In this document: in pieces, positions 20,554-24,870 of the stretch
Numbering within the stretch: position 1 is the first letter of the stretch
Layout: every line of letters starts with the position of its first letter
IMG/VR virus record: IMGVR_UViG_2778260991_000004
Location: 1-34,638 of that record
Reading direction: 5' to 3' (one strand)
DNA length: 34,638 nucleotides
From: a virus
Taxonomy: Duplodnaviria; Heunggongvirae; Uroviricota; Caudoviricetes
Translations under genes and position numbers: made by a program
The notes under the pieces: generated by a model
What the model was told of the DNA's origin: nothing
The model's database searches: none
What the model saw: the letters and a program-made list of their open reading frames with translations, nothing else

Positions 20554-21882
20554 TTACAACGCCGCGTAATTACCGTGCGCGATGATCAACCCATAGGTGT
20601 AACAATCGAAAAGGTCATCAGCACGTTTATGCGCGTCTTTATCCGCCAGGTGGAATCCGGCGATTTGTTTTATGAGGTGGTTTGCGGTGGTGCGCTTGAA
20701 TGAAACGGTCTTGTCGTAAGCCTCCCGGACGATTTTGCACACCCCCTGATAGTGGTAGCTGGATGCCATCACCGCCCGTTCATCTTTGCCCTTGCTGGTT
20801 AGTGCCGATTTAATCGGCGTCATATCCCAGCCTTCGGTTTCCGCCTTCTGGTTGAGGATTGCCCCCATCGCGGCGTCTTCCATAAAAATTCCCTGGCTGC
20901 CCAGACGCGGACGGCATAATTTCGCGAGGCGCTCAAGGTTGTCATAAACGCCGGGGATATATTCAGGAAGCAATGACGCTTTAATTTGCGTCACATCCCA
21001 GTCAATAATCGTCAGTTTTGGCTCGTCCGAATACGTTGATTCATAAGCGAAATACACCACGCCAGTACCATCATTTTCGGTCCCGCCTTTCAGCGCCGTA
21101 TCCATCACTGCGAAAATCATGTCGCAGTACGGCGGCATCTCAATCGGCTGACCGTCCACCAGCAGCTTATCGACATCGAGTAACGCGTCTTTGGACCAGT
21201 CCACGAACTCTGCAAGATATTCCTGCTGCCAGACGCGCGGATCGGATTTCTTTTCCGTTTCCTCCAGTTCTTCTTTCGGAATAAACGGATTCGATGAAGT
21301 TGGCGCATGGTGCATAACAAATCCCAGGGATTCATCGTGGCATATCGCGTAGAAAAAATTGCTCTCGTCGATACCGTTTGGTGTGGAAAATACCCACGCA
21401 CAGCCACGGTAATCGACAAGCGTCGGGCGTATCGCTCGGGGCCAGATTTCCTCGAGCATTTCCGGCGATTTAGTGAATGCGGCCTCATCAATCAGCACAG
21501 CGTGATATTTACGCCCACGCCCGGCCAGTTTGTTATTGTCCGTTACCCAAAAGTCGATGCGCCCCCCATTGCGGAGAATGATGCGCTTTTCATTTTTTGA
21601 CTGACTGAGGATCAGCGGTTGCAGAACGGCGCTAATTTCATCCCAGATTTCCTGGTACTGCCGGTATTGCGCGGTAAAAATCCCCACCCTACCCGCGATA
21701 AGTTGCCCGGTGGTAGGAACGGCAAATTTCCGCGTAGCGAAACTGGTAGCGATGTTCACCAGCATCACCGTTTTACCCCAGCGACGACCACAGCATACCG
21801 CGTGGAAGCGTTCTTCTATTGCCGCCGTCCATGCAGCTATTTGCCCCTCATGAGGTTTTGGGAGATAGATTTCAATCGACAT
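20554..21882 (-). CDS. terL: terminase large subunit
   Basis: Walker A-like CCGRRWGKT and Walker B-like AVLIDEA motifs in the N-terminal ATPase region, acidic nuclease-like C-terminal half; 442 aa. Confidence 0.8.
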   Translation of the reverse strand: MSIEIYLPKPHEGQIAAWTAAIEERFHAVCCGRRWGKTVMLVNIATSFATRKFAVPTTGQLIAGRVGIFTAQYRQYQEIWDEISAVLQPLILSQSKNEKRIILRNGGRIDFWVTDNNKLAGRGRKYHAVLIDEAAFTKSPEMLEEIWPRAIRPTLVDYRGCAWVFSTPNGIDESNFFYAICHDESLGFVMHHAPTSSNPFIPKEELEETEKKSDPRVWQQEYLAEFVDWSKDALLDVDKLLVDGQPIEMPPYCDMIFAVMDTALKGGTENDGTGVVYFAYESTYSDEPKLTIIDWDVTQIKASLLPEYIPGVYDNLERLAKLCRPRLGSQGIFMEDAAMGAILNQKAETEGWDMTPIKSALTSKGKDERAVMASSYHYQGVCKIVREAYDKTVSFKRTTANHLIKQIAGFHLADKDAHKRADDLFDCYTYGLIIAHGNYAAL

Positions 21883-22963
21883 TATCCACTCCCGGCATCG
21901 GCAGAGAGTTGTGGATAATTATTTCGTTATTCTCACCACCCACGCCTTTTTTGAGGTTTTCAATCTCAGTGCGCAGCTTTTCGTTGCGAAGCCTCAGTCC
22001 TTCAAGCTCCAGATCATTGCGACTGTCAGTTGCACCACCAGCAGAACTTCCTTTCGTCGCCATTATCAGCTTGATAAGTTCGCGCCGGGCGGCAGCCTTA
22101 TCCTCCAGCAGGATCTCAACACCAAATTTCCCGAGCTTTGCCCCTGCATATAATTGCCGCGCCTCCCCATCAAGCAGAGTGGTATCAGCCATATAAAGCT
22201 GCCCCGTTCCCTCACCGCAGCACTTCGGGCAGTCCGGATTGGGTATGGCGTTATCAACAAAGCCGAGGCCTCCATATTCCGGCTCGGGTTTGCCATCTCT
22301 GGAGGCCTGTGCCGCTGCCTTATCGAATTCTGCAATATCACGCCACTGGTAGAGATGATTCTCGCCCCAGCAATAACGGCAGTTAACACGGCGAAATTGT
22401 GCCAACTGATTGGGGTCGGCCTGGACAATAGCCATCAACTGGCTCACCAGTAAATCCAGGTCTGCGGTATAGCGTTTCTGGTACTGATTGCGGAAGTAGC
22501 TAATGGCACGATAAACCCTGGCATTTCTAAGCATACGGCTGGCGTTGCTGTTAGCTGTCGCACCTTGCCCCTCATAACCAGCCAGTCGGTATGCCTCTGT
22601 CGGCTTTTTCCCCTGAGCAACCAGCATCGCAAACTTAGCCTGCTGGTCAGAAATGCCGAATTCATCGGGACAGAATGAAATTTCCTCTGCGTCGCCCTCA
22701 TTCAGGCACGCATCGGATACTGACTTTTTTATCTGAGATTTTCCGTTCCGCTTTTGCGCAGTCTGCGCAGATTTTTTCTGCGCACTTTTTTGCGCAGTTT
22801 TGCGCATTTCTGTCTGCGCATTTTTCGGAGGTTTTTTGATGTAACGACGGGCTGTTGCGTAATTCAGTCCCCTTGCTTCACACCATGCCACCGGAGATAT
22901 ACCGGAGCGGGTGTATTCAGCAATATACTCCTGCTGCAACGCCCCCCAGTCCGGTCTGCTCAT
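21872..22963 (-). CDS. terS: terminase small subunit
   Basis: 363 aa; N-terminal helix-turn-helix-like segment, basic repeat region (TAQKSAQKKSAQTAQK), and a motif AYRLAGYEGQGATANSNASRMLRNARV typical of small terminase subunits; overlaps the terL start. Confidence 0.6.
   Translation of the reverse strand: MSRPDWGALQQEYIAEYTRSGISPVAWCEARGLNYATARRYIKKPPKNAQTEMRKTAQKSAQKKSAQTAQKRNGKSQIKKSVSDACLNEGDAEEISFCPDEFGISDQQAKFAMLVAQGKKPTEAYRLAGYEGQGATANSNASRMLRNARVYRAISYFRNQYQKRYTADLDLLVSQLMAIVQADPNQLAQFRRVNCRYCWGENHLYQWRDIAEFDKAAAQASRDGKPEPEYGGLGFVDNAIPNPDCPKCCGEGTGQLYMADTTLLDGEARQLYAGAKLGKFGVEILLEDKAAARRELIKLIMATKGSSAGGATDSRNDLELEGLRLRNEKLRTEIENLKKGVGGENNEIIIHNSLPMPGVDNVD
22755..22820. repeat. array of six TGCGCA hexamers within terS (candidate pac-like site)
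   Basis: TGCGCA at about 22755, 22764, 22779, 22791, 22801 and 22815 (spacing 9 to 15 bp), each preceded by a T-run; encodes the AQK repeats of terS. Confidence 0.5.
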
Positions 22964-22966
22964 CAG

Positions 22967-23218
22967 TTAGTCCTGATTTTTATCCACCCTGAGTAGTTCG
23001 CGCAGGGCAAAGGCATCCCCTTTTCTGGCAAGCTTAAACAATGCCGCCCGTAGCTCGGCTTCACCTTTCGCTCTGCCCTTACGGATGGACGCATAAAAAT
23101 TTGTCATTGCTTCCCGATTTTCTTTCAGTCGGTTCAGATCAACATCCAGAACGTCAGCTATTTGTTGTGCAGTCATCCGGCACGCTGCCAGAGACTCGAC
23201 TTTCGAATACGGAATCAT
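22967..23218 (-). CDS. small basic protein upstream of terS (possible DNA-binding)
   Basis: 83-aa ORF; ATG at 23218 preceded by GGGGGTGA; basic C-terminal helix. Confidence 0.35.
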   Translation of the reverse strand: MIPYSKVESLAACRMTAQQIADVLDVDLNRLKENREAMTNFYASIRKGRAKGEAELRAALFKLARKGDAFALRELLRVDKNQD

Positions 23219-24086
23219 TTGTCACCCCCATTGATATGCAGGGTGTCTTCTTCCTGTATTTTTCGTGAATGATTTTTACTGCAGCGTTGTTCCAGGTGAC
23301 CTGATGGTGAATGCGTTTATGGCTGGCGCCCATCAGGGATATTTTTACGCACGACGGCGCATACATGACGGAGTAAAAACTTTTAACGTAGGTTCCGGAA
23401 TCCAGATACAGTTCGGTCATTCCGCCGCTGTTTTTCTGCGTCTGTTTCTGCCCTAACTGGACAGCACCAATCGTCATAAACAACTCACCACGGCGACCGA
23501 GATTCGTGTACGTATTCACATCCTCGTTAATGCGCCCCATGAATGAGAACGGTCGATCAACCGAACAGATAAAGCTGTTCATTGCCTTGCGTTTCACCCA
23601 CGAAGCATGGCCGCCATTGTCACCAAGAAAATCCCCGCCCTGCGACATAGCGATGGAAAGAGCAGGTATTGATTCGTAGTACGCCAGCATTTCAGAAAGG
23701 ATCGCATCCAGTTTCCTTATCGGAAAATAGGCCTGGTCATAGTTGCGATCCACCCGAAACTGGAACTCGTGATAATCATCATCGAGCTGAATGAAGTATT
23801 GACACCCGACCAGTTTTGCCAGGTCGAAACAGGCATTACGGGCGTAAAAAATTGAGCGGCGGTCACAGAAATTATCGGCTTCGTCAAAACGACTGGCGAT
23901 ATCGGCTTTGGAAAACACCAGCACCTGTTCACCAAATTCAGCTATGTATTGATGCCATGTCTTATCTTCATCATCAACAACGATAAAAATTTTCCCGGTA
24001 TAGCCAGCACGACGCAACGTCCGGTAAGTCAGAACTTTGTCCGGTCGCCCGTGAGTCAGAATAAAGGCGCAAAAATCATCACGCAT
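23154..24086 (-). CDS. GT-A-fold-like (DxD motif) glycosyltransferase-like protein
   Basis: ORF 23154..24107; preferred ATG at 24086 with GGAGGAGG upstream, overlapping the ParB-like stop; motifs ILTHGRPD, IFIVVDDED and FIQLDDDY resemble GT-A nucleotide-sugar transferases; no methyltransferase motifs seen. Confidence 0.4.
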   Translation of the reverse strand: MRDDFCAFILTHGRPDKVLTYRTLRRAGYTGKIFIVVDDEDKTWHQYIAEFGEQVLVFSKADIASRFDEADNFCDRRSIFYARNACFDLAKLVGCQYFIQLDDDYHEFQFRVDRNYDQAYFPIRKLDAILSEMLAYYESIPALSIAMSQGGDFLGDNGGHASWVKRKAMNSFICSVDRPFSFMGRINEDVNTYTNLGRRGELFMTIGAVQLGQKQTQKNSGGMTELYLDSGTYVKSFYSVMYAPSCVKISLMGASHKRIHHQVTWNNAAVKIIHEKYRKKTPCISMGVTNDSVFESRVSGSVPDDCTTNS

Positions 24087-24870
24087 ATTCCTCCTCCTCC
24101 CCGCCATGCATGATCTCCACCATACGCTGCGTCATCCGGACAAATCCATTTTCGATAGCCTGCTGATAATCAATGATCACCAGCGCCGATTCCTCGAAAA
24201 AGCACTGAATTTCAGCGGGGGCGTGAGCGTAATAGTCCGCAATTCTGCTGAAATTAAACACCGTATGACGTTCTGCCGCACACAGGAGGAATTTCTCAAT
24301 ATCAGGATCAAGGGACGCCGAACGTATCCGGCTGATCAACTCCTGAGTTTTCGTATCGTCGTACAGTTCACTGATATCTGGTTTATCGCCCGACGGCTCA
24401 TAAACAGGCGTATCAATTTTCGTCGTGTACGGCTCCTCCTCATTTCCTGTACCTGGCAAAACATCCGTCAACAATTCATCAATTTCTGTTGAGCTGAATC
24501 CTGTCAAGGAGACATCAAAATCAGCATTGATTAGGTCCGACAGCTCCATCCGCAACAGATCTTCATCCCAGCCAGCATTCATCGGCAGGCGATTATCTGC
24601 CAGGCGGTACGCCTTTTTCTGCTCATCCGTCAGGCCAGACAGAACAATGACCGGAACAGAATCCATTTTGAGCATTTCAGCCGCCATAACACGACCGTGA
24701 CCCGCAATAATTTCGCCCTTTTCGTCAATCAGCACCGGATTAGTCCAGCCGAATTGCTTAATACTTTCTACCAGTTGTACCACCTGCTCAGTACTGTGCG
24801 TCCTGGCGTTGTGTGCATACGGAGACAGTTCTTGTAACGGGCGATAGACGATCTTCAATTTCTCGCTCAT
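24079..24870 (-). CDS. ParB-like nuclease domain protein
   Basis: 263 aa; N-terminal region with the motif IIAGHGRVMAA resembling the ParB/Srx nuclease-domain signature; acidic C-terminus; typical location upstream of terminase genes. Confidence 0.55.
   Translation of the reverse strand: MSEKLKIVYRPLQELSPYAHNARTHSTEQVVQLVESIKQFGWTNPVLIDEKGEIIAGHGRVMAAEMLKMDSVPVIVLSGLTDEQKKAYRLADNRLPMNAGWDEDLLRMELSDLINADFDVSLTGFSSTEIDELLTDVLPGTGNEEEPYTTKIDTPVYEPSGDKPDISELYDDTKTQELISRIRSASLDPDIEKFLLCAAERHTVFNFSRIADYYAHAPAEIQCFFEESALVIIDYQQAIENGFVRMTQRMVEIMHGGEEEEYA

Follow-up and report, generated by a model that had tools for sequence, protein, structure and literature searches.

A candidate P1-type packaging site within the small terminase gene of a Rac-family prophage

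Background

How the small terminase subunit (TerS) of pac-type phages chooses viral DNA has been described as unclear and controversial (PMC9611059). In phage P1, pac is a 161-bp site inside the gene pacA and contains seven TGATCA/G hexamers with Dam sites (PMC10028697). The pac site of P22 is a single asymmetric site of 22 bp inside gene 3, and specific in vitro binding has not been demonstrated for the TerS proteins of P22, Sf6, SF6 or SPP1 (PMC9611059; PMC4737164). In SPP1 and SF6 pac, A/T runs alternate with G/C-rich elements, which fits DNA wrapped around a ring with helix-turn-helix (HTH) motifs about one helical turn apart, and the DNA-binding domain of SF6 binds its repeats weakly and without sequence specificity (PMC4737164). 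Here we describe an array of six TGCGCA hexamers inside the small terminase gene terS of a tailed phage (Caudoviricetes; IMG/VR record IMGVR_UViG_2778260991_000004, positions 1 to 34,638; the whole stretch of 34,638 bp is called the window in the following). We consider it likely that these hexamers are cis-acting sites cognate to the N-terminal HTH of TerS, the product of that very gene, and that they mark the phage DNA for packaging as a counterpart of P1 pac. Phage lambda offers a further comparison: the elements R3, R2 and R1 of its cosB are bound by the winged HTH of gpNu1, and these repeated elements, some of them inverted, lie beside the terminase genes.

The hexamer array and the gene that contains it

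The window represents a Rac-family lambdoid prophage, and a 98.5% identical copy lies between the tail genes and recET-intR-ttcA in E. coli STEC005; over strains STEC005 and STEC711 the identity of the copies is 98.5-99.2%. The following features are needed here (window coordinates):

22755..22820, no strand: six palindromic TGCGCA hexamers in an array, proposed to be a multivalent pac-type site recognised by TerS
21872..22963, minus strand: terS, small terminase subunit of 363 aa (Pfam Terminase_2, phrog_51)
22832..22963, minus strand: N-terminal three-helix HTH domain, codons 1-44 (helices 6-20, 24-31 and 35-41), proposed reader of the hexamers
22832..22861, minus strand: predicted recognition helix, codons 35-44 (YATARRYIKK); R39 is Lys in the TGCGAA sister class
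22664..22831, minus strand: basic low-complexity linker, codons 45-100, predicted to be disordered (pLDDT about 50); its DNA carries the array
22031..22600, minus strand: Terminase_2 core, codons 122-311, the Pfam match being interrupted by a Cys-rich insertion (NCRYCWGE...CPKCCGEG)
20554..21882, minus strand: terL, large terminase subunit of 442 aa (Terminase_6N, phrog_2); its start overlaps the end of terS

The assignment of terS is supported by the Pfam family PF03592 Terminase_2 (36.8 bits at a gathering cut-off of 26.1, E 7e-9, aa 122-311), by phrog_51 'terminase small subunit' (E 3e-71) and by the annotation of the corresponding STEC005 gene as 'terminase small subunit'. A protein homologue search with TerS returned, among the matches listed, only near-identical E. 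coli and Salmonella proteins. In the PDB, TerS had no close solved homologue; only a weak similarity (E 0.11) to the HTH of the small terminase of Pam5 was obtained.

Six exact copies of TGCGCA start at positions 22755, 22764, 22779, 22791, 22801 and 22815, with start-to-start gaps of 9, 15, 12, 10 and 14 bp (plus strand of 22755-22820: TGCGCAgtcTGCGCAgattttttcTGCGCActtttTTGCGCAgtttTGCGCAtttctgtcTGCGCA). This corresponds to nt 144-209 of terS (aa 48-70). The window as a whole contains 14 TGCGCA sites, six of them in the array, compared to 13.8 +/- 3.4 expected from its composition, so that the excess is a purely local cluster. Random placement of 14 sites in 200,000 trials put at most 4 of them into a span of this size, and the Poisson probability of 5 further sites within 61 bp is about 5e-12. 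Direct reading and clustering statistics thus confirm the six hexamers, 9 to 15 bp apart in terS, reported in the first-pass annotation.

That annotation had also placed a T-run before each hexamer. This holds directly for three of them (22755, 22791, 22801), but the run is interrupted by one base at 22779, weak at 22815 and absent at 22764 (gtcTGCGCA). Read on the coding strand, these T-runs are A-runs that belong to Lys codons. The array encodes KNAQTEMRKTAQKSAQKKSAQTAQK (coding strand: AAT GCG CAG ACA GAA ATG CGC AAA ACT GCG CAA AAA AGT GCG CAG AAA AAA TCT GCG CAG ACT GCG CAA AAG). Five of the six hexamers encode Ala-Gln (xxT GCG CAx), in agreement with the AQK-repeat coding region assumed before, but the hexamer at 22801, which comes second when the coding strand is read, lies one base out of register and gives Met-Arg-Lys (ATG CGC AAA). 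Since one hexamer is out of frame, the array is not simply an 'AQK' peptide repeat. TGCGCA does not contain GATC, so the hexamers of the window carry no Dam site, and the annotation of the 98.5% identical STEC005 prophage lists no methyltransferase. We also rejected the idea that the hexamers reflect avoidance of a restriction site or serve as a target of methylation, because TGCGCA occurs at the expected frequency across the whole window.

Conservation of the repeat at DNA level

We gathered 305 terS loci (numbered with L) with 133 unique N-termini; the sources were genomes, one for each species, together with viral contigs of IMG/VR and phage records. Many of these are related prophages; unique sequences were therefore counted and weight was put on cross-genus comparisons. 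The relatives in E. coli and Shigella have 4-6 TGCGCA copies with occasional point changes (TGTGCA, TGCACA), and units of 12 nt change in number among close relatives (one lost in L042, one gained in L110). Homologues from Serratia, Superficieibacter, Buttiauxella and metagenomes, which are 37-58% identical outside the linker, retained 4-8 exact TGCGCA and differ in spacers, linker length and peptide. Among the hexamers of 78 unique arrays of the TGCGCA type (class A), 343 are read as AQ, 88 as xR and 4 as CA.

Between distant lineages the four-fold synonymous sites are 22-50% identical (mean 31%) and thus essentially randomised. When codons were reshuffled with the protein kept and with the gene's own codon usage, a mean of 0.15-0.9 copies was obtained compared to 4-8 observed; none of 3000 trials equalled the observed count in any of the 20 lineages tested. 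In the window terS, GCG is used for 6 of 8 Ala codons in the linker and for 6 of 35 elsewhere. Across 31 E. coli-type haplotypes, 19% of the hexamer positions are variable, compared to 60% of the array spacers and 57% of the third positions in the HTH domain. Because the reading frames vary, the synonymous sites are saturated, the codon null fails and the hexamers vary less than their spacers, we conclude that the array is kept by selection on the DNA itself and is no by-product of the peptide repeat. The first-pass annotation had named a comparison of repeat conservation among related prophages as a check and had regarded a conserved peptide repeat without a conserved DNA repeat as speaking against a packaging site. 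The frame, codon and polymorphism data gave the opposite pattern, i.e. the DNA motif is conserved while peptide and reading frame vary. The linker stretch accordingly appears to be read both as peptide and as DNA site, the peptide being largely dictated by the site.

Runs of A6-A8 lie between the hexamers in the linker DNA of the window (22740-22830) and of its relatives. The gains and losses of 12 nt, together with hexamers in a shifted frame, suggest frequent slippage with the frame restored nearby.

A separate observation concerns Rac-SA53 (KU052037.1, L001 3750-4120), the terS gene of which is annotated as a gpO-terS fusion by deletion. Its homology to the window ends inside the array, at the second hexamer, which leaves the gene without the HTH domain. 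Of the next four hexamers, three have a private point change each (TTCGCA, TGCGCT, TGCCCA). These changes would be consistent with relaxed selection after loss of the HTH, the numbers being too small for more.

The N-terminal domain and its pairing with the repeat

The array adjoins the 3' end of the codons for the 44-residue N-terminal HTH. AlphaFold2, run on the single sequence of TerS aa 1-100 as a monomer, predicted three helices with a pLDDT (predicted local distance difference test) of 77-87 over aa 1-40. In an alignment of all variants of this domain, Ser23 and the turn Gly32 are invariant across classes and the variation is concentrated in helix 3. A sister class matches Pfam HTH_50 (27.4 bits, cut-off 27); the window domain has no significant Pfam match. 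A profile search of the PDB yielded sub-significant matches only (E 0.08-1.8), most of them to HTH DNA-binding domains. Foldseek with the AlphaFold2 model gave nothing significant (E > 1), and most of the matches listed were again HTH DNA-binding domains.

The sequence of or around the third helix and the motif repeated in the adjoining DNA change together:

A[RH]R[YH]IKK, 80 unique sequences: 4-8 TGCGCA, at most one TGCGAA
AKRYI[KR][VI], 19 unique sequences: no TGCGCA; 4-7 TGCGAA/TTCGCA, often as TGCGAATTCGCA
...ALRYMAGKKGW: three to four GGGGCA, then TGCCCC
...AIRKRAKKNGW: four to five GGTACGC, in most arrays also an inverted copy
...LIDLARKRGW: four CCGACC, then four GGTCGG
...LMDMAKKHGW: CCGTCC/GGACGG
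...AIRKKAKAEDW: GGTTCGC, then GCGAACC
...INQRAKNEGW: GTTTCC, then GGAAAC (class motif TGGAAAC)

The pairing of ARRYIKK with TGCGCA and of AKRYIK[VI] with TGCGAA/TTCGCA has no exception in 99 unique sequences. Seven further helix classes each have a motif of their own (GGGGCA, GGTACGC, CCGACC, CCGTCC, GGTTCGC, TGGAAAC). Motifs one base apart accompany similar helices, and in every class the linker peptide changes with the DNA motif. Motifs that are not palindromic occur in both orientations within one array, with at least one inverted copy in every such class. Since the two orientations are translated differently, they cannot stem from a repeat at the peptide level. The A-runs of the coding strand keep their strand irrespective of the orientation of the motif, which makes Lys codons and bendable spacers a better explanation for them than membership in the site.

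The motifs other than TGCGCA were picked after viewing the data, their sole control being the multiplicity of the commonest hexamer, for which no motif was chosen in advance. In the 150 nt after the HTH, the commonest hexamer occurs 3-9 times in 124 of 124 unique homologues with the N-terminal extension. In core segments of equal length from the same genes it mostly occurs twice (maximum 4).

Relationship to PacA and proposed function

An N-terminal stretch of PacA aligns with ...SGISPVAWCEARGLNYATARRYIKK of the window TerS. Comparison of the TerS N-terminal alignment with PacA aa 1-93 by hhalign gave an E value of 6.6e-5 and a probability of 64% for 27 columns over the HTH. The window TerS matches phrog_1711, the PacA family, with E 1.4e-4; TGCGCA-bearing phrog_370 proteins match it with E 2e-5 to 3e-6, and PacA matches phrog_370 with E 4.8e-5. 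With moderate confidence, these values point to a relationship of the N-terminal HTH of the window TerS with the N-terminus of PacA. In the P1 record we found eight TGATCA/G hexamers at pacA nt 194-233 and 324-380, in two reading frames. These two groups flank the annotated cleavage positions (nt 276-285) and the site for integration host factor (IHF; nt 256-268). As the HTH is related to PacA and the mapped hexamers occupy an equivalent position in pacA, the analogy with P1 probably becomes a homology of the recognition module, with the site in an equivalent place. The candidate pac site that the first-pass annotation had proposed by analogy with P1 thereby gains support from three sides, i.e. 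selection at DNA level, the covariation of helix and repeat, and the PacA-related HTH.

The following mechanism would be in line with the sequence data. The N-terminal HTH would be tethered by the basic disordered linker of about 55 residues to a Terminase_2-type core, which forms rings in characterised relatives. The TerS oligomer would thus offer many flexibly tethered HTH domains to six sites spaced 9-15 bp apart; the avidity of many domains would give specificity, and the DNA, rich in A-runs, would probably be wrapped or bent. Its pattern of A-runs and GC blocks resembles, by analogy, the bendable pac DNA of SPP1 and SF6. The array bound by TerS would mark concatemeric phage DNA, and TerL would be recruited for an initiating cut nearby, followed by processive and probably headful packaging. 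The clustering, the selection on the DNA, the covariation with the HTH helix and the relatedness to the PacA N-terminus are results of the comparison; we infer from sequence that TerS is the binder, that its binding starts packaging, where the cut would be placed and that packaging is headful. The core is presumed to serve oligomerisation and as a second DNA-binding region, and TerL is presumed to be the nuclease/ATPase recruited by TerS. The position of the site within a gene is easier to reconcile with terminally redundant pac genomes than with those of cos type.

Several points weigh against this explanation. The relatedness to PacA rests on a short match, namely the 27 columns with an hhalign probability of 64%. 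In P1, the hexamers form one cluster on each side of the cut and an IHF site lies in between, whereas the window has a single cluster: no second one was found within +/-450 bp of the array with one mismatch allowed, and the IHF consensus WATCAANNNNTTR gave no match around it. Some relatives (L260, L264, L275, L329, L345) have a looser second TGCGCA group 30-100 nt downstream. Single hexamers are dispensable, as common E. coli variants with TGTGCA or TGCACA keep 4-5 intact copies. HTH and array are adjacent, so that part of their covariation could come from linkage, both being passed on as one module, and independent switches of specificity are few (about 9). The self-complementarity of the arrays is strong (z -2.3 to -8.5) and leaves room for a role of RNA or cruciform structure. 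TerL has no solved homologue by sequence, and its characterised relatives (T5-like, 26%) are too distant to indicate pac or cos packaging. Finally, our literature search turned up no report on a packaging site in this phage group, and no experiments on binding, cleavage or the ends of virion DNA for this phage or a close relative.

Alternative explanations

The HTH of TerS might bind the array for regulation, either to autoregulate terS/terL or to time transcription or translation of the late operon, which would be compatible with a packaging role. HTH binding to repeated or palindromic sites is typical of repressors, the site lies within the 5' part of the gene that it would regulate, and the covariation data show the pairing of protein and site and not its purpose. 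On the other hand, in the sets examined this HTH always occurs on a small-terminase core (four families including P1 PacA) and on nothing else, and the equivalent hexamers of P1 are a packaging site. We therefore regard regulation as an unlikely main role. Somewhat less probable still is that the array acts through nucleic-acid structure, i.e. that pairing of palindromic or inverted hexamers forms mRNA hairpins tuning terS translation, or cruciform or single-stranded DNA. The window array folds at -39.1 kcal/mol compared to -23.0 for shuffled sequences (z -4.8), arrays of all classes tested deviate in the same direction within the range given above, and every class with a non-palindromic motif has at least one inverted copy. 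Against this, each array holds to one motif that is fixed across lineages, while a structure would drift by compensatory change. On either side of the dyad it is the coding strand of the spacers that is rich in A, and the spacers never complement each other. The TGCGAATTCGCA units have no room for a loop, and copy number (4-8, often odd) and spacing vary between lineages so that no common fold is kept. A structural role would also not predict the match between motif and recognition helix. The self-complementarity is best seen as an expected side effect of dyad-symmetric protein sites.

It is very unlikely that the array is read by another protein, be it a ParB-like protein, an HTH-like open reading frame (ORF) of 83 aa, or a host factor. 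ParB-family proteins do bind clustered short repeats, the genes for the first two adjoin terS in many relatives, and the 83-aa ORF matches part of the 'terminase small subunit' family phrog_309 (E 2.5e-22). Yet the HTH of this ORF (TEQQIADVLDIDL) is almost unchanged at loci with TGCGCA, GGGGCA, CCGTCC, CCGACC, GGTACGC, GGTTCGC and TGGAAAC, and the ORF is absent from many TGCGCA loci. A homologue of the ParB-like protein is missing, within the flanks examined, in 44 of 77 class-A loci, and the homologues at TGCGCA, GGGGCA and TGGAAAC loci are equally diverged from the window copy (65, 64 and 63%, respectively). Both proteins were rejected as array binders, as they do not covary with the motif class. 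The idea that the DNA has no function of its own, the hexamers being leftovers of slippage duplication in a basic linker selected as protein only, is the least credible of the alternatives. The shifts of copy number by 12-nt units in L042 and L110, the A-runs, which favour slippage, and the same dipeptide from five of six copies would agree with it. It is countered by the out-of-frame and inverted copies, by the persistence of the exact hexamer across lineages with saturated synonymous sites, by the failure of the codon-reshuffling null in all 20 lineages and by the lower polymorphism of hexamers than of spacers. A mere peptide tandem repeat or low-complexity linker is contradicted by a DNA motif that stays fixed while frame and peptide vary. 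Recognition of the array by the HTH of TerS for packaging thus remains the explanation that we favour.

Distribution of the HTH and array as a module

Viral contigs were scanned blind for groups of three TGCGCA sites close to each other, which led to 120 sampled places. Of these, 59 lie directly after a strict ARRYIKK-type helix and about 21 more after close variants (ARRYIKR, ARRYLKS, ARRHIKM); the remaining places were noise from GC-rich DNA or simple repeats. The HTH and the TGCGCA array were found together on three TerS cores, namely phrog_51, phrog_32222 and phrog_370, the last without a Pfam match. A TerL of the window type is present in fewer than half of the class-A loci. As HTH and array occur together on different cores and with different TerL types, both move together as a module. 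The distant homologues L012-L017 from Acinetobacter and Collimonas begin directly at the Terminase_2 core and have no N-terminal extension.

We tentatively propose, as a possibility that we hold with clearly less confidence than the function of the array itself, a widespread portable cassette of packaging specificity. It would consist of the HTH of about 44 residues and an array of its cognate sites in the DNA of its own linker, the linker peptide being largely a passenger. Such cassettes would be exchanged among at least four TerS cores (phrog_51, phrog_32222, phrog_370 including the Shiga toxin (Stx) phages of the 933W/Sakai type, and P1 PacA) and among different TerL types. They would come in at least ten specificities in a readable helix-to-base code, as exemplified by R39K accompanying the change from TGCGCA to TGCGAA, and would decide which co-resident prophage, satellite or plasmid is packaged.

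Two further loci were noted in this context. In VT2-Sakai (AP000422.1, terS 30131..30937; L434 1501-2307) the phrog_370-type TerS of the 933W/Sakai-type Stx phages starts with the same HTH module (INYNTARTRIKM). Its linker GKIDHEIDHKTDHEIDHDIS is encoded by four copies of (C/T)GATCAT(G/A)A spaced by 12 bp, each with a Dam GATC inside and resembling the P1 pac hexamer. These repeats are a candidate pac site of this medically important phage group. Klebsiella phage RothD (PP934564.1, L435 455-1195) pairs a window-like TerL (59.5%) with a TerS of a different core. This TerS, annotated as 'hypothetical protein', has an AKRYIKV-type HTH and the linker peptide GANSQKKSANKSANSQK, which, judged from the peptide, is of the type accompanying TGCGAA repeats.

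Neighbouring genes and genomic context

Directly upstream of terS lies a cassette of three genes (22967-24870, minus strand), parts of which recur at this place in relatives from several genera and motif classes:

22967..23218, minus strand: HTH-like 83-aa ORF, matching positions 145-218 of the 319 of phrog_309
23154..24107, minus strand: TET-associated glycosyltransferase (TAGT; E 1e-35)
24079..24870, minus strand: protein with a ParB-like N-terminal domain, upstream of terS

No TET/JBP oxygenase or methyltransferase was seen near this cassette, and we pose as a question whether it links DNA modification to packaging. The 83-aa ORF may be an accessory packaging protein or the remnant of another TerS.

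The insertion into the TerS core (aa about 196-255, NCRYCWGE ... NPDCPKCCGEG) has four or more cysteines, is conserved down to the homologues from Acinetobacter and Collimonas, and resembles an element of the zinc-ribbon type within a small terminase. TerL is 59.5% identical in Klebsiella phage RothD and in Yersinia phage vB_YenM_21.09. The starts of related phage records (RothD, vB_EcoP_phi315) were considered as a clue to DNA ends and rejected, as they are set by annotation convention.

In the STEC005 prophage, genes for the binding subunit of a subtilase-family AB5 toxin and for a scabin-related ADP-ribosyltransferase lie between the lysis genes and the region of the late-gene regulator (L004 27276-28494, corresponding to about 26775-27993 of the window). 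Rac-SA53 carries LT-IIa at the corresponding place, and the prophage family of the window thus carries toxin cargo. Actinobacillus phage vB_Apl-pPE4 (PP818812.1), with Actinobacillus pleuropneumoniae as recorded host, has a TerL 99.8% identical and a terS DNA 94.5% identical to those of the window prophage. Its host attribution looks doubtful; otherwise a very recent transfer or contamination would have to be assumed.

Significance and comparison with known packaging systems

This family offers what the P22, Sf6, SF6 and SPP1 models lack, i.e. a discrete small HTH domain and short exact sites in 4-8 copies. Matching variants of protein and site also occur naturally in it as a series, some of them one residue and one base apart. 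These properties make DNA recognition by TerS directly testable. The module is common in prophages of E. coli, Shigella, Salmonella, Klebsiella and Yersinia, among them Rac-type and Stx phages that carry toxins. Arrays of this kind could help to predict packaging starts, hot spots of lateral transduction and the compatibility of phages with satellites, and could serve to design or block the packaging of engineered DNA. In the literature open to our search, we found neither this array nor the series of paired helices and motifs described.

P22 shares with the window a recognition site inside the small-terminase gene; unlike the window, it has one non-repeated site, and its TerS family is unrelated. 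The core of SPP1/SF6 G1P belongs to the same Pfam family, Terminase_2, as that of the window TerS, and pac of these phages (pacL/pacC/pacR) likewise consists of sets of short direct repeats reaching into the 5' end of terS. The window differs by its extra N-terminal HTH, which covaries with the repeat and is absent from SPP1-like TerS, and the sequences are unrelated. As proposed here for the window, lambda has a set of repeated elements that are recognised by an N-terminal HTH of its small terminase subunit. The lambda elements are 16 bp long, lie upstream of Nu1, need IHF and belong to a cos system, and the fold class of the HTH and the sequences differ. The repeats of the window lie inside the gene and not upstream, and thus do not show a layout of the lambda cosB type.

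P1 pac is the proposed counterpart of the array. Both P1 and the window have near-palindromic 6-bp repeats with the same outer bases (TGATCA/G and TGCGCA, i.e. TG..CA). In both, the hexamers lie in the 5' third of the gene for the recognition subunit, just 3' of the HTH codons (P1: HTH at about aa 16-41, hexamers at nt 194-233 and 324-380; window: aa 22-44 and nt 144-209), and fall into more than one reading frame. Each P1 hexamer contains a Dam GATC that controls cleavage, whereas those of the window are without GATC. The remainder of PacA (phrog_1711) is unrelated to the Terminase_2 core of the window protein (phrog_51), and the TerL partners differ. On this comparison, the array of the window is best read as a P1-like terminase recognition (pac) site of new specificity, with one cluster instead of two, no Dam site and a Terminase_2-type TerS as its putative reader.

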